Source: a virus | Lineage: Duplodnaviria > Caudoviricetes | IMG/VR virus record: IMGVR_UViG_3300032274_000545 | Coordinates: 1 to 46,663 of that record | Length of the DNA: 46,663 nt | Reading direction: 5' to 3' (one strand) | Part shown: positions 2,666 through 25,300 of the stretch, one piece after another | How positions within the stretch are numbered: the stretch's first letter is position 1 | How the letters are laid out: every line of letters starts with the position of its first letter | Notes under the pieces: model-generated | Database searches by the model: none | The model's input: only the letters and a program-made list of their open reading frames with translations | Told to the model about the DNA's origin: nothing | Made by a program: the position numbers and the translations under genes

Positions 2666-3234
2666 CCGTGAACATTTTCTATGTCCGAAGACGATGAAGG
2701 CGGCCAGGTCAATCCGGCGGCGGTTACGTCGTCTGGATAAGTTATTGAAAGATTCGTGCAAGTACTCCGCGTCGATAATTCAAAGTCAAAATAAACATAT
2801 ATAAGCCGTTGACTCCCGGCGCTATCCATTAACCCGCCATTCAGCGACGTATTATTCAATGCGACATGAGCCGGGCGCGTCAGGTTCTTGTTTGCGTTCT
2901 GAACTTCCCTGAACCACTGTAACCCGTACTCAAACAAAGTAGACCACTGCTCTACCTTAGTCGAATTGTTTAAACTGGTATCGTTTGAATAAGCTTGCAA
3001 GTCCATGAAATGAACCCGAAAAGAAAAGCTCGTTCCTAAATCATTTGGGTTAAGCTGAATATCGGGAGGCGTAACCAGTACGGCAGGGTAGAGCGTCCCG
3101 GTTTGTTGGCTTGCGTCGTAGTTGTTTGCCACGTTCCTATCCATATCGGACGGCCAGCCAAAATGATAGTTCACAAAGGACGGGTGAACGGTTGTAACCG
3201 TGTTGAATATGTTGGATATTTCGAGCAATGTCAT
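2662..3234 (-). CDS. Putative tail terminator/completion protein
   Basis: 190 aa with a YPAVLV motif and beta-rich pattern; structural context. Confidence 0.5.
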   Translation of the reverse strand: MTLLEISNIFNTVTTVHPSFVNYHFGWPSDMDRNVANNYDASQQTGTLYPAVLVTPPDIQLNPNDLGTSFSFRVHFMDLQAYSNDTSLNNSTKVEQWSTLFEYGLQWFREVQNANKNLTRPAHVALNNTSLNGGLMDSAGSQRLIYVYFDFELSTRSTCTNLSITYPDDVTAAGLTWPPSSSSDIENVHG

Positions 3235-3278
3235 TGCCTTATAATTTATGTTATGTTAAATAGGGGCTATTCGTGCCT

Positions 3279-3518
3279 TTATTGTTTTAAAATCATTACG
3301 GAATCCCAACACCTAAATTTTTTCCTGACTCCTTTGTATTTCGGATTATCATAACTATGATTTCTTATCACTTCTATTTCGATAAATTTATTTTTTATCC
3401 TTGTGACCTTGCCATGAACTACCTCCACGCTACTACTGCCAACCATATAAGCAACTGCAACCTCTTGCCCTACCTTTATTTCTTTTTCGTAAATATCTGT
3501 ATTCTTAAATTCCCTCAT
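3279..3518 (-). CDS. Small SH3/KOW-like hypothetical protein (AT-rich insertion)
   Basis: DIYEKEIKVGQEVAV...GKVTRI pattern; AT-rich relative to neighbours. Confidence 0.55.
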   Translation of the reverse strand: MREFKNTDIYEKEIKVGQEVAVAYMVGSSSVEVVHGKVTRIKNKFIEIEVIRNHSYDNPKYKGVRKKFRCWDSVMILKQ

Positions 3519-3793
3519 TTCTGTTTCATTAAATTGTTCTTAAATTCCGTCTCCGCCGCCTTTGCGCTCAAATAATGAAACGCATCATAAAGCGGCGCTT
3601 GTTCTGCGGACTCCATCGGCGTAAGTCCTCCCCTATTGAAGACGCCGGCCTCCGCAATATCTTTAAGTGTCAAATACCAACCGTACGCTTTTGTAAGGTT
3701 TTTGACGCCAGCCTTAACCGCGCGAGGTTCCGGCTTGCGGTATAAATTTGGAAATCTCTCCCTAATTTCGCGCTTCGACTCATCAAAAAAAAA
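3515..3793 (-). CDS. Tail assembly chaperone, -1 frameshift extension (GT-like)
   Basis: Open frame beginning at the T9 slippery run; YGWY...IAE motif. Confidence 0.7.
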   Translation of the reverse strand, partial: FFFDESKREIRERFPNLYRKPEPRAVKAGVKNLTKAYGWYLTLKDIAEAGVFNRGGLTPMESAEQAPLYDAFHYLSAKAAETEFKNNLMKQK

Positions 3794-4431
3794 GCAGTCC
3801 GCCAAACGAGTGACAATGGCAGGTCGTTGAATAATTTCCGATTCCGTTTGTACACGTTCTCGTTGTACTTCTCCCCTGGTTGTCTGAGCAGGACGGCGCA
3901 AACATCTATTAGGCTTCGCATATTGCCGCCCTTTATGTCCGCCATTGCCGCCTGATATTGCGCCGATTCTGCGAACTCAATAACACTAGCATTTTCCATC
4001 AGCCTATCGGGTATTTCCCATTTCTTGCCGTTCCATTCAAATGCTTTTTGGTATACATAAGAAGAAACAGGCGGCGGGGCTAAGGCTCCTATAATTACCT
4101 CATACATCGCCTCCAATTGCTTGACATTCATCCCCAGCCCTTGCCGCCCGTCTAAAATAGGAATAGAAACATTCGTAAAATGAGAAACCACGGCGCAGTA
4201 GTAAGGGAAAATCTGTTTTGAAAGCATTGTTTGAGTAATTTTACTACTCAATTCCTGCACTTTTTCTTTGTCCTGCGCATCAATAGCCGCGTCAATATCT
4301 TTAACGATTTGCGGCGCTCGCTTATCGTACAAATCCAGATGTCCGATAAACTCCCCAAACGTTACGTCCTGCGCCGTCGTCGGGTATTTGTACTTTGTTT
4401 TATCGCCCGGTATGGTAAATACTACGCTCAT
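3670..4431 (-). CDS. Tail assembly chaperone (G-like)
   Basis: DVTFGEF N-terminus; ends shortly after GCT TTT TTT TTG (AFFL). Confidence 0.7.
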   Translation of the reverse strand: MSVVFTIPGDKTKYKYPTTAQDVTFGEFIGHLDLYDKRAPQIVKDIDAAIDAQDKEKVQELSSKITQTMLSKQIFPYYCAVVSHFTNVSIPILDGRQGLGMNVKQLEAMYEVIIGALAPPPVSSYVYQKAFEWNGKKWEIPDRLMENASVIEFAESAQYQAAMADIKGGNMRSLIDVCAVLLRQPGEKYNENVYKRNRKLFNDLPLSLVWRTAFFLMSRSAKLGRDFQIYTASRNLARLRLASKTLQKRTVGI

Positions 4432-9103: not shown

Positions 9104-9182
9104 TTGCTTCCTTTTGCTCCGCCTGAGCGGAAGGTTTAAAAATATCTCCCAGTCTGGATTTACCCGTATCGTCGCCGGGTCA

Positions 9183-9476: not shown

Positions 9477-9709
9477 CCCTCTTCATTTTGCTTCGCCTGA
9501 GCGGAAGTTAAAAAATCATCCGGCAAAGATAGCGCCCGTCGTGTGCCGCGTTCGATAAGATTAGCGTCTTTCGGATTCAAGACCTTCAAAATGGTTTTTC
9601 TAAGCCATACAGATTTCCCCATCCCCTCTGTACTCGAAGCGTTTTCAATTGCGGCCTTTAGCGCAGGGGTGACTAAAAATTCAATGCGTTCTGTCTTATT
9701 TCCTTTCAT
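9473..9709 (-). CDS. Ribbon-helix-helix-like regulator
   Basis: KTERIEFLVTPALKAAIENA...GMGKSVWLR pattern. Confidence 0.7.
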   Translation of the reverse strand: MKGNKTERIEFLVTPALKAAIENASSTEGMGKSVWLRKTILKVLNPKDANLIERGTRRALSLPDDFLTSAQAKQNEEG

Positions 9710-10002: not shown

Positions 10003-10212
10003 TCAAAAACCTGTGAAATCCGGGAGCGCCTCAAACTCGCTCTGAGTGAGTAAACAAGTCTCGAAAGTATATTTTTCGATTTCGCCCGTGTCTTCTGTAT
10101 AAGCAACCATGTTGTTAATTACCTCTCGCATGTTTTCAGGCTTTTCGATAAAGGGGTTAGACTCTTCTAACGTAATTTTTATATACACTTTTTTTGCTTC
10201 AATCTTTTCCAT
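10003..10212 (-). CDS. Hypothetical acidic protein
   Basis: ORF with A-rich leader. Confidence 0.65.
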   Translation of the reverse strand: MEKIEAKKVYIKITLEESNPFIEKPENMREVINNMVAYTEDTGEIEKYTFETCLLTQSEFEALPDFTGF

Positions 10213-10270
10213 CTCTCTAAGGTTTTATTTTATTTTTGATGTATTATGTAATCAGTGCGAGTAGAAATAG

Positions 10271-10711
10271 TTAATCTCCCGAAGGATAAGTTATGTCATT
10301 AACCATATCTTCGCGATCAAACCAGCCTTCAAAGTAATCGTCTATACTCGCTTGAAAGCCCCGCGCTTTTATCTCCATTTCTATCGCGGCGTGGTTGCTC
10401 TTAAGTATCCGGCCTAATAAAAGCACAAAATACTGATCGCCTGGCCTTGCCCCCCATTTTTCAAGCCCACCTCCCACACATAATCCCTTGCACTGAACAA
10501 GAATCTGAGGTCTGTTTTTTGCATAGCCGTTGGAGAACACAATATCAACGTCAGTCGGATGGTAGCATCGTCCTTTTATTTTGATATACCCATTAACAAA
10601 AATTCTATTCCAGAACGGTTTGATTTCTCTGTACTCCTCTTTTTTTTCGTGCAAGAGGATTTCTTTAAACCATCGCCCTTTTAAATTTAAATGCAAAATA
10701 GGGTTTTCCAT
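10271..10711 (-). CDS. ASCH/PUA-like domain protein ending in DITYPSGD
   Basis: LHLNLKGRWF.EIL...KKEEYRE..PFW..R; FSNGY; start ATG 10711 overlaps the MTase stop. Confidence 0.75.
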   Translation of the reverse strand: MENPILHLNLKGRWFKEILLHEKKEEYREIKPFWNRIFVNGYIKIKGRCYHPTDVDIVFSNGYAKNRPQILVQCKGLCVGGGLEKWGARPGDQYFVLLLGRILKSNHAAIEMEIKARGFQASIDDYFEGWFDREDMVNDITYPSGD

Positions 10712-11475
10712 TATTTTATTTTTGAAAACAAATCTTTTTGAATGCCCGCGCTCATGCGGCGTTTTGCTGCGGCGTAGTAATCGGGGTCTATTTCGTAGCC
10801 GACGTAGTTCATATCGAACCGCTCGAACGTTAACAGACTGGACGCGCCGCCAACGTGCGTATCTAACAAAATCCAGTCCTTTTGAATTCCTTCTAGTTTC
10901 AAAACCCAACTATATAATTTTGTCGGCTTATGGTTCGGGTGTACGCGCTTTTCGCATAGCGCCCGATTGCCTTGACTTATATGTCCTTCCCTCAAACTTC
11001 TTCCCTGTAGTAACCCGTTCCACATATACCGAACCCGCCGGACGCTAGAAAATAAATTCGTCCAAGCAACCTCAAAATCGCTTTGGTCGCAATCGCCGTT
11101 TACTTTGTCCCAGAAAATTCGGCCTGAACTTTGCGCTTTCTGGTCAAACTGGAGGTAGTTACAGCCCCAAATTATTTGATATTTTGAAACCCGGAAAAGT
11201 TCATCAAAGTATTCCTGGTTAGGTTGCTCGTTGTCATAGCGGCTAGTAAGTTTGTATTTTTGCGGTTTCACTTTTACAACTGCGCCGTTTCTCTTATCGC
11301 GCTTTTTTATCGCGGTGCCATCTTTGCGAAAAACACGCCCTTGGTGCTTCCTCCCGTCGTCCTGTATCCCGTATGGCGGATCGATTATAGCCAAACCAAA
11401 ATAATTATCAGGATAAGACGGCAGCCCGTTCTTTTTATCCATACAATCGCCAAGTATAAATTTATTCCCCATCAT
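10711..11475 (-). CDS. DNA N6-adenine/N4-cytosine methyltransferase (beta class)
   Basis: GDCM; DPPY; HPNHKP; LDTHVGGASS; GYEIDPDY. Confidence 0.9.
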   Translation of the reverse strand: MMGNKFILGDCMDKKNGLPSYPDNYFGLAIIDPPYGIQDDGRKHQGRVFRKDGTAIKKRDKRNGAVVKVKPQKYKLTSRYDNEQPNQEYFDELFRVSKYQIIWGCNYLQFDQKAQSSGRIFWDKVNGDCDQSDFEVAWTNLFSSVRRVRYMWNGLLQGRSLREGHISQGNRALCEKRVHPNHKPTKLYSWVLKLEGIQKDWILLDTHVGGASSLLTFERFDMNYVGYEIDPDYYAAAKRRMSAGIQKDLFSKIK

Positions 11476-11756
11476 CTCCGTTTTTTACCTTTCCGCTCCA
11501 ACCACGCGTCAGCCTCCGACTCCCGACAGTACCACGTCGAGTTTACCGCTTTTTGCTCCGCCGGAAACTTCCCTTTCGCCGCAAGCGAAGAAATATGTTT
11601 TGCCGTATACGGGTTGCCTTTCGACTTCAGCCAGTCAACGACCCTTATGGGTTTTTCGACTTTTTTTTCCAATGCTTCCAGGCGCTGGTATAGCTCAGAA
11701 AACATTTCGTGCAGGGGTGCTAGGTCGGCCTGTGTTGCTATGTCATTGATATTCAT
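11472..11756 (-). CDS. Excisionase-like/winged HTH protein
   Basis: Coiled coil followed by ...AAKGKFPA...STWYCRESEADAWL. Confidence 0.55.
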   Translation of the reverse strand: MNINDIATQADLAPLHEMFSELYQRLEALEKKVEKPIRVVDWLKSKGNPYTAKHISSLAAKGKFPAEQKAVNSTWYCRESEADAWLERKGKKRR

Positions 11757-11761
11757 AATTG

Positions 11762-12154
11762 TTAGTATTTCCCGGTTTCCAAATATTCCTTTACTATCTT
11801 TTTGAACTCTTCCAGGCTCCGTGGTATAGCATAGCCGTATCCGTACTTAACCACGACTTTTTCAAATTCCTTTTGGTTCGGTTGCTGCCTGCCTTTTGGC
11901 GTCTTCATTTCGATATACAATCCCGCCAGGTCGCCGGAAGGTATAGAAAGAAACAGGTCGGCCACTCCGGCGGTCATTCCTGCGCGTTTCAGTCGTGCGC
12001 CCTGCTTTGCCCCTCCGCTTAACTTAATGCCATTCAGGGACGAAAAGAGCAGCATTGAGCGCGTCGGGTAGTTGTTGCGCCACCACGCGACGCACTCGCT
12101 TTGTATCTGTTCTTCTGTTTTGCTGTGCGTTTTTCGCCATTGCTGTACAGTCAT
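11762..12154 (-). CDS. VRR-NUC nuclease (Holliday junction resolvase-like)
   Basis: EEQIQ; GMTAGVADL; IEMKTPKGRQ...QK motifs. Confidence 0.9.
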   Translation of the reverse strand: MTVQQWRKTHSKTEEQIQSECVAWWRNNYPTRSMLLFSSLNGIKLSGGAKQGARLKRAGMTAGVADLFLSIPSGDLAGLYIEMKTPKGRQQPNQKEFEKVVVKYGYGYAIPRSLEEFKKIVKEYLETGKY

Positions 12155-12155
12155 T

Positions 12156-12329
12156 TCAAATATTTTTTGAGCGTTTCCGCTTCGCTTTTTTCTTCGCCGC
12201 ATTGACAATCAATTCAATCCATCCCGGCCGTACCGCTTGCAGTTTGATTTTGACCGGCTCTTTGAACTCCCCTGGAATAACCTTCCCGCGCCAGTCGCGT
12301 TTTGGTATTTCTATTTTGAATTTTTCCAT
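12156..12329 (-). CDS. 57-aa basic hypothetical protein
   Basis: Read by hand (MEKFKIEIPKRDWRG...); fills the gap. Confidence 0.5.
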   Translation of the reverse strand: MEKFKIEIPKRDWRGKVIPGEFKEPVKIKLQAVRPGWIELIVNAAKKKAKRKRSKNI

Positions 12330-12341
12330 GCCGCCTTTTTT

Positions 12342-12551
12342 TTATTCGCCGTACTCCTCCGCTACGGCTTTGTACAAATCCATGAATATTTCCTTAATTA
12401 CCACTTCGGAAACACCTTCTTTGAGTAATTTTTTGGCCACTTTTTTAAAAACCTCTGCGCCATTACCCCACCATTCGTCCTCTGGCGGTAATTCGTTTTC
12501 AATAAATGTTGTTAACTCTTTCATATCAATACTCATATTCATATACGTCAT
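12342..12551 (-). CDS. Hypothetical protein
   Basis: ORF in operon; start uncertain. Confidence 0.6.
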   Translation of the reverse strand: MTYMNMSIDMKELTTFIENELPPEDEWWGNGAEVFKKVAKKLLKEGVSEVVIKEIFMDLYKAVAEEYGE

Positions 12552-12837
12552 ATTTCAAGCAAATTTCGTGCAATTCCGGTATAGCTCGGAACGTGGACCA
12601 TTTTCGGCCTGAAGAATCATACTGCTTCTGCATAAGATATTTTTGCCCCGGCTTGATTTTGCCATTGCCCCATTTCCCGAATTCCACGTAAGCCCGCAAG
12701 GCCTTCCAGTCCTTTACCCATTTACCATTTTTGACCTCCCCTAAATCACAAGGATTAATGTATTCTATCCATATCCACGCCATACAATCGTGCACCTTCC
12801 GCGCTTTCACAATTCTTTCTTCTATTAATTCAGCCAT
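12526..12837 (-). CDS. Hypothetical protein (KARKxHxC type)
   Basis: VKARKVHDC...IKPGQKY pattern seen in phage proteins. Confidence 0.7.
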   Translation of the reverse strand: MAELIEERIVKARKVHDCMAWIWIEYINPCDLGEVKNGKWVKDWKALRAYVEFGKWGNGKIKPGQKYLMQKQYDSSGRKWSTFRAIPELHEICLKYDVYEYEY

Positions 12838-13253
12838 TGTTTTTTTTTTACCTCCGCCTGCGCCGCCTCGAGCGTAGGCAAAGCTTTTGTTAATCCGATC
12901 TCAACCGCCGTATGTATCGGCGAAATATTGTGGTCGTAGGCGGTGTAATTACCTGGTTCACCGGACGCGATAAGATACTCGTTATCCTCTACGACTAACG
13001 CGCCTATTGTGCCGTCTTCGAACAGATACCACGTGTCCTCGTGTTTTTTGATTATTTCAACCGTCTTTTTGAACTCCGAGAAAGCCGCTTTGGCCATTCT
13101 CATATGCAATTCGCTTTTTTCACGATCTATTGGGTCTTTGACTTCCGCAATGGCGCAGTCTAATTCCAAGCTATCGGAATCCAAGAAATCAGCCATTATT
13201 TCAATCAGATTTTGTTCTACGTTGTCAAACATTGCTTCTTTTACGTGTTTCAT
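12825..13253 (-). CDS. Hypothetical protein
   Basis: ORF in operon. Confidence 0.6.
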   Translation of the reverse strand: MKHVKEAMFDNVEQNLIEIMADFLDSDSLELDCAIAEVKDPIDREKSELHMRMAKAAFSEFKKTVEIIKKHEDTWYLFEDGTIGALVVEDNEYLIASGEPGNYTAYDHNISPIHTAVEIGLTKALPTLEAAQAEVKKKQWLN

Positions 13254-13418
13254 GTCGTCGTTTTTTACCCGACGCCGCCGCGCCTACCTGCTGGTAATGG
13301 CGCTCGGGCGTTGGGTGTTAGAATAAAATCAAGTCTTCTACTGTCATACCGTGGGGGATTAAATGCGCCCGGCGAGTTGCAGTCCGCCAGGCGCGGTCAA
13401 TTACAAATCATAATCTCG

Positions 13419-13490
13419 ACGCGGGAGCCGGATTTGAACCGACGACCTGGAGGTTATGAGCCTCCCGCGCTACCACTGCGCTATCCCGCG
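13419..13490 (-). tRNA. tRNA with CAT anticodon (Met-type; no encoded CCA)
   Basis: Cloverleaf: acceptor CGCGGGA/TCCCGCG; D-stem GCGC/GCGC; anticodon arm GGAGG-CTCATAA-CCTCC; T-loop GTTCAAATC. Confidence 0.9.
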
Positions 13491-13559
13491 AAAAGCCGTG
13501 GGGGCGGCGTAAATTTCCGGGCTTCTCCGCTTACGTCCTTGTTTGCCCGGTATGTTGAA

Positions 13560-14336
13560 TTAGTTGTTGTCAAACCGTTGCATGTGATCATACTTAATGC
13601 ACTCGAAAAGATATTCCGCTATAACTGGCGAAACAGCGTTACCGTATGCGCTTAACCGAGGCACTAGATATGATCGGGAACGTGATCTATCTCGAACCCC
13701 ATCATCCACGCCGAAAACTGCGGGTTTGCCAAACCTTTGCTCAAATTGTAAAAAGGGACTCCTTTTGTTATCCAATGCAGCGTCCTTTTCTTTTTTAATC
13801 TTTTTAAAGATCCGGCCAGAGTCGCCGTGTAGTAGCTCTTGCCGTCTCGTTCCATTGGCGTAGGCAATAACAAACAGCCTTTTTCTTCTGTGAGGCATTC
13901 CAAATGCGGAACATGATATACATTCCCATTGCGCATCGTACCCGAGGTCGGAAAGGTCGCATAGGACGCGCTCGAAGCCGACCCTAAGTAATTGAGGTGA
14001 ATTTTCAATAATCGCATATTTGCAATTAGTTTCTCCGATGATTCGGGCGTACTCTGCCCAAAGATAAGATTTCGCGCCTTTAATCCCTTCCTGTTTCCCC
14101 GCGACAGAAATATCTTGACACGGAAATCCACCACTGAGGACGTCAACTTTGCCCCGCCATTCTCTGCCGTCGAATTCTTTAATATCGCTGTATTGCTTTG
14201 CATTGTATTTCTCTTTGCATACGTTCCGGCAGAAAACTTTTTGCTCTACCTCGAATAAGGTTTTTATTCCTGCGCGTTTTGCGCCTTCCCCGAATCCTTC
14301 TATCCCCGAAAATAATGAACCGTGTTTTAGTGCCAT
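13560..14336 (-). CDS. DNA (cytosine-5) methyltransferase, main polypeptide
   Basis: SLFSGIEG (I); GGFPCQD (IV); IENS (VI); PHRRKRLF (VIII); YGNAV (X). Confidence 0.92.
   Translation of the reverse strand: MALKHGSLFSGIEGFGEGAKRAGIKTLFEVEQKVFCRNVCKEKYNAKQYSDIKEFDGREWRGKVDVLSGGFPCQDISVAGKQEGIKGAKSYLWAEYARIIGETNCKYAIIENSPQLLRVGFERVLCDLSDLGYDAQWECISCSAFGMPHRRKRLFVIAYANGTRRQELLHGDSGRIFKKIKKEKDAALDNKRSPFLQFEQRFGKPAVFGVDDGVRDRSRSRSYLVPRLSAYGNAVSPVIAEYLFECIKYDHMQRFDNN
13664..14203 (-). CDS. Nested alternative-frame ORF: putative beta subunit of the C5 methyltransferase
   Basis: 179-codon open frame with LLPTP and NPQFSAWMMGF (motif IX-like), which the main frame lacks. Confidence 0.7.
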   Translation of the reverse strand: MQSNTAILKNSTAENGGAKLTSSVVDFRVKIFLSRGNRKGLKARNLIFGQSTPESSEKLIANMRLLKIHLNYLGSASSASYATFPTSGTMRNGNVYHVPHLECLTEEKGCLLLPTPMERDGKSYYTATLAGSLKRLKKKRTLHWITKGVPFYNLSKGLANPQFSAWMMGFEIDHVPDHI

Positions 14337-14590
14337 ATCTCTTTTTTTAAAAAACCAGCGCGGGAAAAAGAAACGCGACTGACTTTTAAACCGCGCCGGA
14401 AGAAAAACCAACTTTCGCAGAGCAACCGAGCCGGAACCCGGTTGAAGAAGATTCTATCTACTTATAAAAAACTCTGCGAAAATTGCCGGGGCGCTTTTTG
14501 AGGCGATAATTACCAATTTGATTCACTATAATTTTGTTCCGCGCCTACCTGCCCCGGCTGGCCGCACTTTTGCGGTTTTCTTATGTTCCT

Positions 14591-14812
14591 TTAATCGCCT
14601 GAAGGATAAGTAATATCTTGAACCATATCCTCCGCGCCTAATCCGTATTGATTCATACCAGCAGCTTGTCGCAAGTCGAACAAAAAAGCCCTGTAACAGC
14701 CTAATTTTACGTCAAGTCGGGCTATTTCAGATTGTTCTTTTTTATTCTGCTGTATTTCAACTAGCGCTTTTACTTTGCGCTCGTAACTTTCGATAAGGTC
14801 TTGAATGTCCAT
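14591..14812 (-). CDS. Small helical protein ending in DITYPSGD
   Basis: ORF with A-rich leader and shared C-terminal tag. Confidence 0.75.
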   Translation of the reverse strand: MDIQDLIESYERKVKALVEIQQNKKEQSEIARLDVKLGCYRAFLFDLRQAAGMNQYGLGAEDMVQDITYPSGD

Positions 14813-15073
14813 TGCTTTTATTTTTCTTCCCTCCAGCGTGACACGCGCCCCGCTTTTGGTGTTGTATAAGTATTGAATGTGAAGAAAATAATTTTCGGGC
14901 GTGGGTCTATCCTGCGCCTTTTTCTTTCTTAATAACCCGGCGGCTCCCTTCCGTCTCCCCCAAAACGTCCAGTCTTAACCGCCGGGCACCCTTACGGGTA
15001 ATCCAGTCTTAAGGTCTGAGGGAGGATCAACCGGATTGTATGTTTCTTAATTCGTTCTCTAACCGTTTCAAAA

Positions 15074-15418
15074 TCACCTCTTACCGCCTTGCTTTGCCCC
15101 TAATTTTTCGATTTCGTCAATCCGCGGATTGAGTAGTCTTAACGCCGGGCTTAAGACACTTGAATCCTCTTCTGTTACCGCGTCCCAATGGTTCATAGCG
15201 TCTGCCATGCTTTCTGCGATTTCAGATATTGCCGCCGCGTATTCGTTCAGCGCCGCCTCTTTTTCTTCTCTTAGTTTCAGCATCATAGCGCCATCGCTAA
15301 AAGCGCACTGCAACCGAATTTCATTAATCGCATTACCGATATAATTGATAGTCTGAGTCGCTAACAAAATCCTGCTGTATGGGTCTATTTTGTAAGGAAG
15401 GAACTTCTTCGCACTCAT
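15074..15418 (-). CDS. Hypothetical helical protein
   Basis: ORF in operon. Confidence 0.65.
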   Translation of the reverse strand: MSAKKFLPYKIDPYSRILLATQTINYIGNAINEIRLQCAFSDGAMMLKLREEKEAALNEYAAAISEIAESMADAMNHWDAVTEEDSSVLSPALRLLNPRIDEIEKLGAKQGGKR

Positions 15419-15575
15419 AATTTTTTGTTGTTGATTTCAAATAATTCACTCTCTAATCTTCTCAGTATCGTTTTATCAATTTCTCGCTGTCGTAAGTTTC
15501 GTGGATCCTCCACCGCCTTTTGCATGACTCTAATCATTAGCGTCAGGTGTTCCGGGGTTTGTGGCGCGAGGGGCT

Positions 15576-16019
15576 TCAAAATGGTATTTGTTCGTCATAT
15601 TCCGCCTGGATAAATCGCGCTCTTGAAATTTCGTTGTATTTTATCAGCAGGCGCCTTTGTTCCTCCCGAATATTCGGATCGCAAGACTCGCCAAAATGTA
15701 TTTTCGCCGCCGCAGACATTGCGAACCCAGGGCGGTTGAATAATTTCGTTATCTCCCGGTGGTATAGCTTCGTCTTTTTTCTCATCATCCAGGCCGCAGC
15801 GTACCTTGCCGCCGTTGCTTTGTGGCAATATTTCGGGCTTTGCATTTCCTCAAAAGTAATTTTGTACACCTCCTTAACCGCCTCGATGCAGATAAATGCC
15901 GTGTCTAAATCCTTTGCCGCTTGTTTGTTTTTCGACTTACCTAGCGCCTCTCTGACTTTTCGCATGTCGTATAGCGGCTTCAGTGATTCGTATGCTTCTG
16001 AAATTGTGTAGTCTTTCAT
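15576..16019 (-). CDS. DnaA domain IV-like HTH protein with SSB-like tail
   Basis: IEAVKEVYKITFEEMQSP....AARYAAAWMMRK....EITKLFNR; ends YDEQIPF. Confidence 0.65.
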   Translation of the reverse strand: MKDYTISEAYESLKPLYDMRKVREALGKSKNKQAAKDLDTAFICIEAVKEVYKITFEEMQSPKYCHKATAARYAAAWMMRKKTKLYHREITKLFNRPGFAMSAAAKIHFGESCDPNIREEQRRLLIKYNEISRARFIQAEYDEQIPF

Positions 16020-16864
16020 GAGATTAGCTTTTTGTGTATTAGTAGTTTTTTTGCTATCGCCTTGACTCTGTCGTTGCCGCCTTTCGCTTCCATCTCCCTC
16101 AGTAGTTGCGTCGCCCGTCGCATCCCTTTTGTATTTCGTTCGTTCTCTATCAGCGCCCTTTTTTCTTTTTCGTATTCGTCAACCGCTTGATTCCAAGCTT
16201 CCGTTTTTTCGCCCGGCTCTAATCGTATCCATCCACGTGCATTAGCGAAGTCGTACCACGCGGAAGGAATTTTATTCCAAGGGCGTTTTTCATATCGCGC
16301 CTGCATTAGCTCGTAAAAGAAATTCGTTTCAAATTGCGCCTGCTCTTTTGCCGACTTTTGCGCCCGTCTCTTTTCTTCCTCGTAAGCGGCTTTTTCTGTC
16401 AGGTAAGCAGCAACTAACTTTCTCCGGTTTTCGTTGTAAGCGGAAATAATTAGCCCTACCTGCCGGGCGTTAAATTCGCCTCCGTACATTTCCGCACCGG
16501 TAACTTCTATTTCATTGTTCGCCCATTGGCGGTATGCTTCGGCGATTTCGTTTAATCCTAAGAATCCAAATCGCTGAATGATATTTACGGTCGCCTCTTG
16601 AATTTCCGGCGTTTCCGCGTCTACCCTTGCGCCGTATTTGTTCGCTAAGTCCGCGAGGAAAGCGCTAACCATTAGCGCCGCCGCTTCCGGCTGATCGTTC
16701 CTAAGCGGCTTCGACCGCCCACGCAAACAAATCATCAATTTCGCTGGCTTGCTCTCTAGCCTCTCTAATCTCAGCCGCAGCCCCGGCAGCAGCCCGTCTA
16801 ATTGTTTCCACTGTTGCAGCGCCGTGACGTTCGCCGGTTTCTTTTTTATTATTTCCTTTGTCAT
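16016..16864 (-). CDS. Replication accessory protein (helicase-loader position)
   Basis: Follows and overlaps the initiator; LNEIAEAY...YG pattern; start uncertain. Confidence 0.5.
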   Translation of the reverse strand: MTKEIIKKKPANVTALQQWKQLDGLLPGLRLRLERLESKPAKLMICLRGRSKPLRNDQPEAAALMVSAFLADLANKYGARVDAETPEIQEATVNIIQRFGFLGLNEIAEAYRQWANNEIEVTGAEMYGGEFNARQVGLIISAYNENRRKLVAAYLTEKAAYEEEKRRAQKSAKEQAQFETNFFYELMQARYEKRPWNKIPSAWYDFANARGWIRLEPGEKTEAWNQAVDEYEKEKRALIENERNTKGMRRATQLLREMEAKGGNDRVKAIAKKLLIHKKLIS

Positions 16865-17618
16865 GCTGTGCGGTTTTTTGCCCAAACCCTTTTTTGTCGC
16901 GTCTAATCCAATTCCGCGCCGCAGCTTTCCAATCTTTCATAGCTGTGCGGCCTGAAACTTTCCATCCGTTCGATTCAAAATGATCGAAAAAGGTTTCGGC
17001 AGATTCGGCGCAAGATTTTTTTTCTGTGAAATAGGAGGTTAATTCTTCAAGTGTTGGTTTTTGGAATTTCTTAGTTTCCTTTGGTGGTTTCGTGGGCGCG
17101 TCCTCTCTCTTAGTATCTTTATTAGTTGTATTATTCTTTATATTAGTATTGTGGGAACTTTCATACCTAGTGCCGTGGGAACTTTCATACCTAGTGCTTG
17201 GTATATTTGTTCCTAGTGAGGAACTTTCGTTCCTAGTGGTTTTTATCAAAAGATCGTAGTTTTCGCCCCAACAAAACCACATGCCGCGAAGTGATTTATT
17301 ATGTAGGTGTGATTCAATTATTGCTGCTTTTTTCAAATTTTCATATCGCTTTGTTACGCTCCGCCTCGTCTTTAATTTTAAGATAGGTTGTTGAGTAACT
17401 ACTAATTTCCAACTAAACAGATAGTATATTTTATCGCCCTCTACTATCTTTTGACACTGCTTTGAGTGTGAGAAATCTTTCAATAATTCAAAAATACTTA
17501 GGTCGATTACGTCTAAATCTAACTTGTGTTCGTCTACTGCTTTCTGGTTTATCTGCCAGCTCCATTTCATAGGATTGAATTTGTATAAATGAATAATGCG
17601 GGGGATTGGATTACTCAT
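16701..17618 (-). CDS. Phage replication initiator (lambda O-like)
   Basis: N-terminal wHTH; repetitive linker; FQKPTLEE...FFDHFESNGW....MKDWKAAARNW C-domain; alternative start at 17570. Confidence 0.85.
   Translation of the reverse strand: MSNPIPRIIHLYKFNPMKWSWQINQKAVDEHKLDLDVIDLSIFELLKDFSHSKQCQKIVEGDKIYYLFSWKLVVTQQPILKLKTRRSVTKRYENLKKAAIIESHLHNKSLRGMWFCWGENYDLLIKTTRNESSSLGTNIPSTRYESSHGTRYESSHNTNIKNNTTNKDTKREDAPTKPPKETKKFQKPTLEELTSYFTEKKSCAESAETFFDHFESNGWKVSGRTAMKDWKAAARNWIRRDKKGFGQKTAQHDKGNNKKETGERHGAATVETIRRAAAGAAAEIREAREQASEIDDLFAWAVEAA
17110..17239. repeat. Iterons plus AT-rich tract: probable replication origin
   Basis: GTGGGAACTTTCATACCTAGTGC at 17151 and 17175; variants near 17207 and 17218; AT-rich 17110-17150. 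Confidence 0.8.
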
Positions 17619-17632
17619 AGAGGCTTTATTTT

Positions 17633-17938
17633 TTAAAAAGGTAGTTCTTCATACTCGTTAATCAATTCGGTTATCCGCTTCCACTCCGCCCGGCTCGGTA
17701 GCAATTCCTTTTGCCGCGGCGCTGGCAAATCCGTTATTTGTTGCGGTAGGCTACATGCTTCCCAGACGTGCTTATCTACGTCGTAGCAAAGCGATATTTT
17801 CAAGTTCCATATTTCCAGCCCTTCGCCTATTATTTCCGTGTAGGTAAGCGCTAGAAAATAGCTGCCCGGTTGAAGAAATAGTTTTATCGGCGCTGGTTTG
17901 GAATGCGGCCGTATTTGGTGTGTTTGGTATACTTGCAT
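17633..17938 (-). CDS. Hypothetical protein with SSB-like tail (EYEELPF)
   Basis: ORF in operon. Confidence 0.6.
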   Translation of the reverse strand: MQVYQTHQIRPHSKPAPIKLFLQPGSYFLALTYTEIIGEGLEIWNLKISLCYDVDKHVWEACSLPQQITDLPAPRQKELLPSRAEWKRITELINEYEELPF

Positions 17939-17939
17939 A

Positions 17940-18377
17940 TTATACGTATTGTCTGTTACCGTACCGGCTTAATTGCTCTTCTAGGCTTCTTAGTTCTTCC
18001 TGCTCGTGCGGTTCCGGTAAATAGATTCCGTGAAACTTGCTTGCGTGATCGCGGAAAACGTCTATTGCAATCGTCATTTCCTTTGTGTCCAGGGCAGCGG
18101 TAGATCTAAAGAAAACCTTTCCACCTTTCTCGTATCTGAATAAGTCTTTACAAATCTCTCTTTTGAAAATTTCGTCTTTGACTTCCTGTAGGCTGTAACC
18201 GGTTTCGAGTCCGTACCAGCTTAGTATCAAGTGCAGGTATTTGTTCTGGCGTATCGTTCGCGCTTTGCTCTTTTGCTTCAGTTCTACCTGTTTCCGGTTG
18301 TTCCAGAAAAAGGCAATCTTTTCTTTGAATTGTTTGCGGTGCGCGTCGTTGTCTAGGTTGTAAATCATAGTCGCCAA
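17940..18377 (-). CDS. NinB/Orf-like recombination accessory protein
   Basis: RTIRQNKYLH; RSTAALDTKEM; GIYLPEP. Confidence 0.75.
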   Translation of the reverse strand: MATMIYNLDNDAHRKQFKEKIAFFWNNRKQVELKQKSKARTIRQNKYLHLILSWYGLETGYSLQEVKDEIFKREICKDLFRYEKGGKVFFRSTAALDTKEMTIAIDVFRDHASKFHGIYLPEPHEQEELRSLEEQLSRYGNRQYV

Positions 18378-18676
18378 GATTGAAAAACTAAGTCAATTTG
18401 CTTTCGCGGGTCTTCGCTTTGCTCTTCGTGTATCTGCATTAATTCGTCAATCACTTGAGGTAAGTCCAGTATATCTTTTGATTCAATACGAAGTAAAATC
18501 TTGTCGTACTCTTTATCTGTAAGTTTTACCTGCTCTAGCCTTGATAAAGCATACCAGTAAGCGCCGTCTGGGCATTTCCAAAACCCCTCTTTCCATTTGG
18601 TCGCCTTTGCTTCCTCGGAAAACATGATCTTGGTTTCCTGCTGCGCTATCCAGGTCAAAAAACTATCCTCCGGCAT
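18365..18676 (-). CDS. Hypothetical protein
   Basis: ORF in operon. Confidence 0.6.
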   Translation of the reverse strand: MPEDSFLTWIAQQETKIMFSEEAKATKWKEGFWKCPDGAYWYALSRLEQVKLTDKEYDKILLRIESKDILDLPQVIDELMQIHEEQSEDPRKQIDLVFQSWRL

Positions 18677-19340
18677 TTCTTATATTTTCATAAGTCGCCT
18701 TTGCTGTGTCGATGAAATCGGCGTCCTCGTGAAACGATCTAGCTATCTGACTTAACTCCTTTACGTCTTTTGCCCTGTCAAGGGCTTTCATTGCCCTGAT
18801 AGCGTACTTTTTGTACTCTGCCCGTATAACTGCCGCAGTAGGGTCTTTCTTTGTCTCAGGCGTGAATTCGTCCATTTCTTCGGAAGGCGTGCCCTGGTAT
18901 CCAGCCGCTTTGAATAACCAGCCAAGCAGGACGCGAAATGCCTTCCCTACTGCCCTGGTTTGCGCCATGCTTGCGATTGCGTATTCATCAAAATATTTTT
19001 TCTTGGATTCGCCGTTTGAGCAATAAGCAAAGGCGCGAGTAACTATCTTATCGTTGCTCTGGTCTACGATTTCAACCTCTGCCATGTATCGGAATTCTTC
19101 CGGCCTCGTGCTTTTGTCTTCCAACTTGACAATGCGAGGGAATAACCCGACTAAAGCACCGGCGTACTGCCACGCCTCAACCATTGGATATTTGTTTTTT
19201 TGGATAACTATAAACAGTTTTTCCTTTTCGATATGGGTCTGAATTTCGGCGGAAAGCTTGGAGAAGAGAACAGGGTCGTTTATGTTTTGGAAGTTACGTT
19301 TTTGTACGCCGTTTGGCTTTAGCTTGACTATATCGGACAT
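18663..19340 (-). CDS. Single-strand annealing recombinase (putative)
   Basis: YPMVEAW; EYAIASMAQTRAVGKA; TPSEEM motifs. Confidence 0.7.
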   Translation of the reverse strand: MSDIVKLKPNGVQKRNFQNINDPVLFSKLSAEIQTHIEKEKLFIVIQKNKYPMVEAWQYAGALVGLFPRIVKLEDKSTRPEEFRYMAEVEIVDQSNDKIVTRAFAYCSNGESKKKYFDEYAIASMAQTRAVGKAFRVLLGWLFKAAGYQGTPSEEMDEFTPETKKDPTAAVIRAEYKKYAIRAMKALDRAKDVKELSQIARSFHEDADFIDTAKATYENIRNAGG

Positions 19341-19399
19341 AATTTGTATTTTTGAATTGTTGATAAAATCTTTTCGGAGCCTCGTGAGGGGCTTTTTTT
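19324..19399 (+). ncRNA. Promoter plus terminator unit: candidate ~42-nt antisense sRNA
   Basis: TTG(19324)-N20-TATTTTTG(19347), then AGCCTC-gtga-GGGGCT-T7. Confidence 0.55.
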
Positions 19400-19401
19400 A
19401 T

Positions 19402-19659
19402 TTAGTCGCCCGACGGGTATCTGATTCCGGCGTCGTCTAATTCTTTTAAGTGCAAATCAATTCGCTCCTCCTCTTTGCTTCTTTCTTCAGCGAACCCTAT
19501 TGCTTTGTCCACATGATCGTCTAGCACACCGCTTGCCCCCGGCATTTCTGAACAGACAAACCGCCAAAGGTATTCGTGCAATTCTTGTATGTAATTGAAT
19601 ATCTCCCCGTCTTGATCGATATGTTCCGGCGACAAAAAACCGTTTGGCCTTTTTTTCAT
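19402..19659 (-). CDS. Hypothetical protein ending in GIRYPSGD
   Basis: ATGA-coupled ORF with shared C-terminal tag. Confidence 0.75.
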   Translation of the reverse strand: MKKRPNGFLSPEHIDQDGEIFNYIQELHEYLWRFVCSEMPGASGVLDDHVDKAIGFAEERSKEEERIDLHLKELDDAGIRYPSGD

Positions 19660-20030
19660 GCTGCTTGTTTTTGAGTGGTTTGGAATTCCGCGCTATTAGC
19701 CCGGATATACCCTATCAGCATCGCCTCAATTTCCTCCCCGCTCAAATCCTTCAAATACTGCGAAAAGGTGAAATGCAGCCGCTTTGCTTTCGTTTCGATA
19801 TACTGTCCGCGTGAATTAATATAATCAAATACGCCGCCGTCAAGTACAATCAAGCCCTCTCCTTCTTCGCTGTAGTCGTCGATATTGCCCGCCTCGAACT
19901 CCGCGCCGATAATGTCGGCGAAGTCCAGCGCCTCATCATAGTAGCGCCCGTCGAAGTCGAATTTTACGTTGATTTTGTGCTTTGGGGAAAGGTTGACGTC
20001 GTAGTCGTGGATTTGGATATTATTTTTCAT
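19656..20030 (-). CDS. Hypothetical acidic protein
   Basis: ORF in early operon. Confidence 0.7.
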   Translation of the reverse strand: MKNNIQIHDYDVNLSPKHKINVKFDFDGRYYDEALDFADIIGAEFEAGNIDDYSEEGEGLIVLDGGVFDYINSRGQYIETKAKRLHFTFSQYLKDLSGEEIEAMLIGYIRANSAEFQTTQKQAA

Positions 20031-23475: not shown

Positions 23476-23641
23476 AAAAAGGGTATGCCATGTAAGCCGT
23501 AAAAGACGAGCCAACAAGGCTGTCTTTGTGGGGTTGACTCGCAAAACGCTTTGGCTACCTAAAATAAAAAAGCCCGGCGCGCAGGATATGAAAAGCGCCG
23601 GGCAAACATACTTGAATTGTAAAAGTAAAAAATTAAGCCTT

Positions 23642-25300
23642 ATGAGTAAGAAATTTTTTCAAACTAAAAGCGACGCACTGTCTATATTAAAAACGACTCG
23701 GAACGCTGCCGCAACGGGCGGGGCGATTACTAGCATGGTAATAGTGGGTACTATAGCATACCAAGGGATGTTGGATTTTTTGCATCCCGTTTTTGCTGGA
23801 TTTCTTGCAATTCTAGCTATTGCCCTGGTTGCTTTCGTCGTGGATTACGGGCTAAGAAAAACACTTCCCTTTGGCTTCGATATACTAATTGCGGGCGAAT
23901 GGCGCAAGGACTGGAAAATAGCCGGATTTCTTTTTTTGCTGTTTGTCGTCAATGCCGGCCAAGTGTACACATCTTTAAAGCTATCATGGGAAGGGCGCAA
24001 GGAAGCCGCCGCCGCTATTCAACCCGATTTGCAAGTAAAAGACCTTACAGCGATTAACTCGCAAGTAACCGCATCAAACATAAGAGAACGGCGCGGAATT
24101 GAAAATCAGATTAAGGCTATTAGTACTCAAATAAGGGAGAAAGAAAAACAGACTATTGCGGCCTACCCTACTTATACTGAAAAAATAAAAAGCGGTGACG
24201 ACAAATGGGGTTGGCATGCCGGGCAACTAGAAAAGAAAAAAGAAAAAGCAACGGCAGACCTGAGAAGTCAAAAAACTGACCTTATTGCATCTCTTGCGAG
24301 TTTGACAAAAACGCAAACAATGAAAGACTCCCTGACGCTATTTAGTGCCGCGACAATCAACGCTTTTAATACAAATGAGTATGTGACGAACAAAGACCGA
24401 AACATGAAGTATATAGGGTATTTCGGCGCGGGTTGCGTTTTACTTGTCCCGTTTTTGTCGCTCATGTTGTCATTAATCGGCCAAAACGACACAGAAGAAG
24501 TCGAACAAAAAGAAATCAAAAGTCCAATGCGCCGACTAAAAAAAACTGCTACCGCGCCTCATGCTGCTATCCCTGCCAGATCCAGCGCGCCCGATGATTT
24601 TGAGGTGCAAAGGAGGCTAGAGATGCTGCATGCGCAAGCGGAGCAAGAGCGCAAAGAACGCGAACGATTAGAAGAAGAAATTAAGCGCAAGGAAGAACAA
24701 CAAGCGCAAGCAGAACAAGAGCGCAAGGAATTGCAAGCGCTAGAAGACGAGCGCAAGGAACGCGAAAGGCAAGCCGCAAAACTAGAGCGAATACGAGCGC
24801 AAAAGTTGGCGGAATTAGAGCGCAAGAACGCAGAAAGAAAGGCCGCAAAAAAAGCGCAAGAACTAGCCGCAAAGCAGGCGCAAGAAAAGGAAGCGCAAAG
24901 GCGCAAAGAAGAAGCGCAAAAACATGCGCAAGAATTGGCGGAATTAGAGCGCAAGCTGGAAGCGCAAAAGGCGCAGGCGCAAGCCGCAAAAGAAGCAGCG
25001 CAAAAGGCAAGCGCAAGCCCCTCCCCTGGTAGGCGCAAAGTTGCGTCCCAAGATATTGAAAACCAATCAGTTAAGACGCAATCTAAAAAGCGCAAGAAAA
25101 AAACGCAAGGGAGGAGCGCAAAAAAAGGCAAATCTCCGGGCAAAACTATCATTATTGCGGGTGAAGAAAAGACGCGCAATAACTGGCGCGCAAGAGTGTC
25201 AGCCTTGCGAAAGATTGCGCCTACAAAAAGAACCGCAAAACAAGCGCAAAGGCTAGCGCAAATAGAAGCGGTTTTGTGGCCGCAAAAAGTAATTTCCTAA
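23642..25300 (+). CDS. Multi-TM membrane protein with long coiled coils and basic C-terminal domain
   Basis: Three N-terminal TMs, coiled coil, fourth TM, E/R/K/A/Q-rich coil; start placed at ATG 23642. Confidence 0.85.
   Translation: MSKKFFQTKSDALSILKTTRNAAATGGAITSMVIVGTIAYQGMLDFLHPVFAGFLAILAIALVAFVVDYGLRKTLPFGFDILIAGEWRKDWKIAGFLFLLFVVNAGQVYTSLKLSWEGRKEAAAAIQPDLQVKDLTAINSQVTASNIRERRGIENQIKAISTQIREKEKQTIAAYPTYTEKIKSGDDKWGWHAGQLEKKKEKATADLRSQKTDLIASLASLTKTQTMKDSLTLFSAATINAFNTNEYVTNKDRNMKYIGYFGAGCVLLVPFLSLMLSLIGQNDTEEVEQKEIKSPMRRLKKTATAPHAAIPARSSAPDDFEVQRRLEMLHAQAEQERKERERLEEEIKRKEEQQAQAEQERKELQALEDERKERERQAAKLERIRAQKLAELERKNAERKAAKKAQELAAKQAQEKEAQRRKEEAQKHAQELAELERKLEAQKAQAQAAKEAAQKASASPSPGRRKVASQDIENQSVKTQSKKRKKKTQGRSAKKGKSPGKTIIIAGEEKTRNNWRARVSALRKIAPTKRTAKQAQRLAQIEAVLWPQKVIS
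24632..25261 (+). repeat. Array of 26 GCGCAA hexamers
   Basis: Counted by hand; all on the same strand, in all three frames. Confidence 0.85.

Follow-up and report, generated by a model that had tools for sequence, protein, structure and literature searches.

Why do three small proteins of one phage, with nothing else in common, end in the same peptide? The question was raised by a 46,663-nucleotide (nt) stretch of viral DNA from the Caudoviricetes (IMG/VR record IMGVR_UViG_3300032274_000545, positions 1 to 46,663), referred to here as the window. An initial annotation had noted three early genes whose products end in IxYPSGD and had proposed that this ending is a portable address tag. We found that IxYPSGD terminates a longer element, a portable module of about 20 residues at the C terminus. 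The module is conserved as a peptide, is under purifying selection, and sits at the ends of unrelated proteins in phages that share few genes. The probability that it is a portable peptide for docking to a conserved host protein, a putative partner, is by our estimate roughly one in two.

Three unrelated proteins with a shared end

The three genes all lie on the minus strand and all stop with TAA. The genes and their shared ends are:

10271-10711 (-): ASCH-like protein, 146 amino acids (aa); an ASCH core at about residues 1-105, then some 40 aa private to this protein, with the back half of the module at their end.
10271-10312 (-): copy 1, the last 13 codons plus stop, EDMVNDITYPSGD; back half of the module.
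14591-14812 (-): 73-aa protein; a widespread two-helix phage core at about residues 1-52, then nearly the whole module; ends EDMVQDITYPSGD.
14591-14656 (-): copy 2, the last 21 codons plus stop, MNQYGLGAEDMVQDITYPSGD; front and back half of the module.
19402-19659 (-): 85-aa protein; a phage core of about 60 aa, then an acidic helical extension ending IRYPSGD; end ELDDAGIRYPSGD.
19402-19425 (-): copy 3, the last 7 codons plus stop, IRYPSGD; matches its two genome-mates.

The open reading frames (ORFs) with stops at 10271, 14591, and 19402 do end in IxYPSGD, as the initial annotation had stated, and the carriers are indeed mutually unrelated. Pairwise BLASTP aligned only their last 13, 7, and 7 residues, plus one 23-aa match with an E value of 0.8. 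The reported codon differences were also reproduced. Of 42 nt, 7 differ between copies 1 and 2; these changes leave five codons synonymous and exchange N and Q at a sixth (5 of 7.7 synonymous sites, 2 of 31.3 nonsynonymous sites). The peptide-level conservation of YPSGD holds over the three copies, with all five third codon positions varying and none of the ten other positions doing so. Copy 3 retains six of seven residues as in copies 1 and 2 despite saturated synonymous sites. The DNA pattern occurs three times in the window, a count not attained in any of 100 shuffles (mean, 0.06), and the chance for one of 160 ORFs to end in IxYPSGD, computed after the fact, is about 3e-6. No shared sequence was found in the DNA 3' of the three stops. 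Contigs from two sequencing runs agree letter for letter with the window, with no differences over 10203-10697 (copy 1) in a run from another study (X3) and none over 14300-19800 (copies 2 and 3) in run X1, which is possibly the source of the window DNA. Therefore, an assembly error behind the three copies is unlikely.

The homologues of the carriers lack the tail. It was absent from all 10 homologues of the 85-aa protein, which share its core, from all 23 of the 73-aa protein, and from all 119 listed (of 193 found) of the ASCH-like protein, 152 proteins in total. The ASCH-like carrier matches phrog_625 (E value of 5e-15, residues 4-104), and its homologues are annotated as ASCH domain-containing proteins; the carrier does not reach the Pfam ASCH profile at an E value of 0.01. 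The terminal slot holds an xPF end, resembling the tail of SSB, in 7 of the 119 listed ASCH homologues, so the ASCH domain takes on short terminal handles. SSB-tail-like ends are also present on two further early proteins of the window, encoded at 15576-16019 (-) and 17633-17938 (-), which end in EQIPF and EELPF, respectively. In the 73-aa protein, similarity to the 23 homologues is confined to residues 2-56, and the tails of the homologues vary, extending 5-81 residues past the two-helix core in the 21 that could be anchored. An ESM Atlas model of this core resembles helical hairpins, at low confidence. The many unrelated tails on the two-helix core often start from a recurring L-x-I-x-x-V-[SM] junction, and two module carriers from other phages (L241 and L324) have this junction upstream and inverted-repeat-like DNA downstream. 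These sequence patterns hint at cassette shuffling of small Bacteroidota phage genes.

A longer module

The idea that IxYPSGD is itself the conserved unit was not borne out, and pattern searches for the exact tag gave no other gene beyond this phage. A strict YPSGD-stop scan of viral contigs had no matches with I/V fixed and 26 without, none of them a plausible gene end by inspection. A metagenome scan gave 21 matches, 3 in the phage's own record (L030, L032, and L038) and 18 at implausible gene ends. None of 7,123 ORFs in 160 ASCH-flanking loci ends in YPSGD. The strict scans, which required TCN and TAA, were too restrictive for the module family.

The real unit was evident in a protein of prophage contig L058, found by reading the 160 ASCH-gene loci without either half pattern. 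Its N-terminal part is unrelated to those of the window carriers, its end is HYGLGPEDMINDITYPNG, and copy 2 is 64% identical to its tail over the aligned stretch. The consensus of the module is approximately K-L-x-F-M-x-x-N-G-L-G-x-[ED]-D-M-x-N-D-I-T-Y-P-x(2-3)-stop. The last two or three residues vary, with SGD, HEL, HEF, HGI, SEI, NEL, QEI, RS, and NG following the proline in different members.

Searches with one half of the module recovered the other. A scan for the back half only gave 10 viral matches, 6 of which have the NGLG front that had not been searched for, and all 6 end within 11-12 residues; the remainder comprised 3 internal matches without the front and 1 chance short frame. A scan for the front only matched at least 120 loci in at least 49 distinct contexts. 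Among the matches listed, the back half is present in 11 of 49 front-matched contexts, and in each of the 11 it is terminal. In tblastn searches of GenBank phages, a shortened form was found in 23 Flavobacterium phage records (gp010, QHB38771.1), and a second type of back half, KGG-x-[IR]-x-D, was present in the four cultured Vibrio phages read; the tail of window copy 2 itself had no match there. Seventeen distinct carriers outside the window are among the matches listed: 10 with the DITYP-type back half (one of them frameshifted), 6 with the KGG type, and 1 with the shortened form. Every carrier counted has the module at its free C terminus, as the initial annotation had noted for the three window proteins.

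Several candidates were set aside. L333, L243, and L230 match the NGLG stretch only; in L333, a 68-aa protein (190-396) has the NGLG-x-DDM front followed by a long basic helix in place of either back half. A stand-alone 25-aa ORF shared by L220 (806-883) and L335 was rejected as a separate gene, since the module there has apparently been cut from a longer gene by a 2-nt frameshift, and another frame upstream resembles the carrier in L252. Gene decay and an assembly error would each account for this copy. Among 301 genomes from the family of genome G002, pattern searching gave a single chance match, which was internal. The module has no match in Pfam, PHROGs, NCBIfam, PADLOC, PDB, or the ESM Atlas other than weak coiled-coil matches, with a best Atlas score of 0.83.

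The three window copies form a nested series anchored at the stop codon, with lengths of 21, 13, and 7 residues. A family profile built without the window rows recovered copy 2 with an E value of 1.5e-10 (positions 16-35) and copy 1 with an E value of 1e-5 (positions 24-35). Copy 3 is grouped with copies 1 and 2 by its match to them, for which the chance is the 3e-6 given above, and not by a family test. When 17 positions were tried, the front 9-mer of copy 3 came within the top 0.2% of all 9-mers in the window, which is only suggestive of a module with an internal deletion. The SGD end is on all three window copies and on no other member. Copy 1 shares 27 of 30 nt with L058, L252, and L335 versus 25 of 30 nt with copy 2. 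Because copy 1 is not closest to copy 2, a recent duplication is not indicated, with the proviso that 30 nt carry little signal. Either selection in this phage has retained or arrived at the SGD end, or the duplication may be old.

Conservation of the module as a peptide

Over 12 members, the synonymous difference (pS) was 0.82 and the nonsynonymous difference (pN) was 0.13, a contrast that is partly built in because the members were found via peptide-derived patterns. The unsearched halves are conserved too. Differences at the first, second, and third codon positions were 0.19, 0.13, and 0.57, respectively, and the other reading frames of the module hold stops. Similarity stops at the stop codon, and the DNA beyond it is not conserved. 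The next ORF starts at -8 to +358 nt from the carrier, the next genes are unrelated, and all three stop codons are used. No consensus RNA structure was found across the members.

Carriers, phages, and hosts

Nearly all the carriers are unrelated to one another. When 18 carriers (L335 and L419 left aside) were compared without their last 30 residues, one homologous pair (L251 and L417) and one 13-aa match with an E value of 0.035 were found. Nine other records share 0-3 genes pairwise and with the window. One further carrier belongs to a 640-kb phage. In the L058 prophage, the N-terminal domain of the carrier (14614-14868) is similar by eye to an untagged 73-aa protein (46-267), which may make them a tagged and an untagged paralogue in one genome.

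The type of back half appears to follow the host group, because the fraction of ORFs preceded by Shine-Dalgarno-like motifs splits by type. It was 0.00-0.13 in eight records with the DITYP type versus 0.58 and 0.60 in two with the KGG type, one of which has only 5 ORFs. Thus, DITYP-type records are Bacteroidota-like in being poor in Shine-Dalgarno-like motifs, and the KGG type comprises Shine-Dalgarno-rich records and cultured Vibrio phages.

A putative docking peptide

The reading that we favor, at even odds, is that the module is a portable docking peptide. Judging from its sequence pattern, the module would form a helix, a GLG turn, a short acidic helix, and an extended I-T-Y-P segment, and it would act as a plug when it binds its partner. 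We infer a host protein as the partner, given that these phages have hardly any genes in common and that the type of back half goes with the host group. Recombination at gene ends could graft the module onto new carriers, which would explain why the window has nested copies of three lengths. The active part may, in most phages, be the module itself, with the carrier a passenger. In the window phage, the three SGD-ending copies could make the module a shared handle.

Several results weigh against this reading, in addition to the built-in part of the contrast between pN and pS. The last two or three residues vary, and the Flavobacterium phage family stops directly after the EDMxxD stretch; both features fit poorly with a pocket for the free carboxyl end. 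A frameshift has apparently separated the copy in L220 and L335 from its gene. No new carriers came from scanning for the short form IxYPHE[LIF]-TAA, for which 26 of 28 matches were in implausible genes and the other 2 in known full members. Copy 3 fails the family profile, with an E value of 14 when the window rows are left out. The module is single-copy in 11 of 11 other records (10 viral, 5 of those at least 90% complete, and the L058 genome), and the three copies that would point to multi-cargo use are present only in the window. Nor was a second partial copy found in nine records read whole or nearly so, or by pattern in four. Finally, some 1,300 genome searches found no host proteins with the module; they covered samples of 301, 401, 301, and 300 genomes of bacteria from the family and then the phylum of a Maribacter bin, the family of Flavilitoribacter, and the class of a Cellvibrionaceae bin, with some genomes recurring. 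These searches returned only the L058 prophage contig and marginal partial matches (E values of 0.005-0.04). Within the genomes searched, the module is thus no simple copy of a host protein's tail.

These results also divide the original proposal of a portable address tag. The module is portable, terminal, and borne by unrelated carriers; it is not a proteome-wide address system, because each of the 11 other records has one carrier protein. In a bolder version of the docking reading, which we regard as rather unlikely, phages would trade the module as a unit, and it would plug, in host-tuned form, into a single machine whose conservation extends from Bacteroidota to Gammaproteobacteria. That machine could be the ribosome, a protease, or a hub of the replisome or of transcription. 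The window phage would then have made it a shared address by three grafts and a private SGD end. If true, this would show how a single-copy effector peptide grows into multi-protein tail tags.

Of all that phage genomes encode, the small accessory proteins are understood least. With its 20 residues, its spread over unrelated carriers and over phages of two host groups, and its presence in cultured Flavobacterium and Vibrio phages, the module is a cheap, synthesizable bait. Naming one host target could make it possible to annotate a whole group of hypothetical proteins that have nothing else in common. The window copies of 21, 13, and 7 residues, being nested, provide a natural deletion series that points to the minimal active part.

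Alternative explanations

It is possible that the module functions in one ancestral family of small coiled-coil genes and that the window copies are shuffled leftovers, hitch-hiking on carriers that do not use them. The carriers' homologues manage without the module, the carrier families bear many unrelated tails, the window copies are progressively shorter, and one copy elsewhere was apparently frameshifted. However, copies 1 and 2 differ mostly at synonymous sites, copy 3 has kept its residues while its synonymous sites became saturated, and the greater similarity of copy 1 to the DNA of L058, L252, and L335 does not, for what 30 nt can tell, indicate a recent duplication. Unused leftovers are thus an unlikely explanation.

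A strictly terminal, portable module on small genes of the early or accessory region is also what would be expected of a degron or stability tag, with a host protease or adaptor reading the tail and setting the lifetime of early proteins. ClpX and Prc degrons rely on the last few residues, mostly small or apolar, with a free carboxyl end. In contrast, the module has about 20 conserved residues and variable last ones (D, L, F, I, S, or G) rather than conserved small or apolar ones, and the window copies end in Asp, which makes a degron distinctly unlikely.

The length of the module suits the ribosome tunnel, and a nascent-chain arrest peptide, whose last 20 or so residues slow termination and so tune downstream genes or mRNA stability, would be fixed to the stop codon as the module is. 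The DITYP type has a proline 3-4 residues before its end, and which back half is present goes with the host group. TnaC is a termination-arrest peptide, likewise about 20 residues fixed to the stop codon, and is encoded by a dedicated leader ORF before a fixed regulated gene. Stop-codon arrest by short peptides is documented, and PepNL is like the module in having about 20 residues fixed to the stop codon (PMC11890864). However, PepNL is encoded by a dedicated leader ORF before a fixed regulated gene, whereas the carriers of the module and their downstream genes vary. There is no fixed position before a regulated gene or RNA switch, the carriers share neither a downstream gene nor the spacing to it (-8 to +358 nt), and no shared structure is present past the stop; all three stop codons are used, and the length after the proline is not constant. 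These features render an arrest function improbable.

The front of the module, which we take to resemble the central dimerization site of H-NS in its helix-GLG-helix layout, might instead close a coiled coil or pair with its own kind as a self-association or helix-capping microdomain. In many carriers, a coiled-coil-like stretch runs straight into the module. There was, however, no H-NS-type family in the Pfam matches (E values up to 1) and no such PDB chain (E values up to 10), and PF00816 was absent from 2 Bacteroidota genomes searched and present in 1 of 14 controls. Furthermore, copies 1 and 3 lose the front and keep the back half, and there is little likelihood that this is the role of the module.

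That the module is a DNA or RNA element (a recombination site, binding site, or hairpin) that merely reads as a peptide is scarcely credible and is largely refuted by the codon pattern, for even though inverted-repeat-like DNA follows two carriers and such small phage genes are heavily shuffled, variation sits on third codon positions rather than being independent of codon position, there is no consensus fold, the flanks are unrelated, and no joints between copies were found in six sequencing runs (contigs, mostly with patchy cover).

Comparison with known systems

Shared terminal docking peptides on phage proteins are of a known kind. The phage T4 proteins gp43, gp55, and gp33 have C-terminal epitopes that bind the sliding clamp and that are interchangeable, with a divergent linker (PMC2988020). 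Like the module, these are short acidic and hydrophobic C-terminal peptides on unrelated proteins of one phage. The module has another sequence and is on accessory proteins, whereas the T4 motifs belong to proteins at the core of replication and transcription, and their target is the clamp that T4 itself encodes. The module also differs in spanning unrelated phage groups and two host groups, usually as a single copy. No sliding clamp was found among 42 window proteins scanned against Pfam and PHROGs. Thus, the module shares with the T4 epitopes the position at the free C terminus of unrelated proteins but neither the replication and transcription carriers nor, among the proteins scanned, a clamp of the phage's own.

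The DDDIPF tail of SSB has proposed mimics on prophage DUF669 proteins, which would reach host machines (PMC13687109; PMC5872125). These mimics are like the module in that an acidic terminal peptide is carried by phage proteins. The module differs from the SSB tail in that it lacks the terminal Pro-Phe, is three times longer, and has no host bearer in the genomes searched. It does not combine acidic residues with an [IL]-P-F end as SSB mimics do.

What sets the module apart is its length, its spread over unrelated phages and two host groups, its mostly single copy number, and the natural deletion series in one genome. In agreement with the initial annotation, no published description of the motif was found in the literature searched, which consisted of best-ranked papers, mostly outside subscription journals. 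For example, the main text of a paper on the Flavobacterium phages has no passage on gp010 or the motif (PMC7077304).

The phage genome and its early region

The first 126 bases of the window recur at its end, and the window looks like a whole circular phage genome; the CheckV entry for the record gives a linear sequence that is 70% complete. Pfam and PHROG scans identified a terminase, a portal, a Clp-type protease, and a tape-measure protein. The terminase is about 45% identical to terminases of Riemerella phages, and the best named relative of the ASCH protein is from Flavilitoribacter. A Shine-Dalgarno-like motif precedes just 7% of the longer window ORFs, and such motifs are rarely used in Bacteroidota. 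From these three features, we infer a Bacteroidota host. The phage was present in three microbial-mat sequencing runs, and among the runs listed as containing it there was no RNA run. Searches of viral contigs with the 85-aa protein and the capsid-like protein revealed no close phage relatives, and the best of the 160 ASCH-flanking loci shares 6 genes with the window.

The carrier genes sit in a leftward early or accessory region together with methyltransferases, a VRR-NUC nuclease, NinB, and a tRNA gene:

13418-13490 (-): tRNA-Met (CAT), early region.

A 179-aa ORF (13664-14203, minus strand) that matches the methyltransferase family phrog_1008 overlaps a C5 methyltransferase gene (13560-14336, minus strand) in another frame of the same strand. 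The nested layout recurs in L058 (3297-3962 inside 3167-4012), which suggests that in both genomes the overlapping genes may encode a two-subunit enzyme. A 40-nt sequence that contains an internal palindrome is imperfectly repeated at 9107-9146 and 9481-9520 (83% identity), in each case immediately before a small gene, and is possibly an operator or promoter element. Further along, the plus-strand gene at 23528-25300 encodes a protein of 570-590 aa with long imperfect repeats rich in Ala, Gln, Lys, and Glu and with no family match. Near the ends of the proteins encoded at 10711-11475 (-) and 18365-18676 (-) is a QxDL[FV]-like stretch that resembles the bacterial beta-clamp-binding motif.

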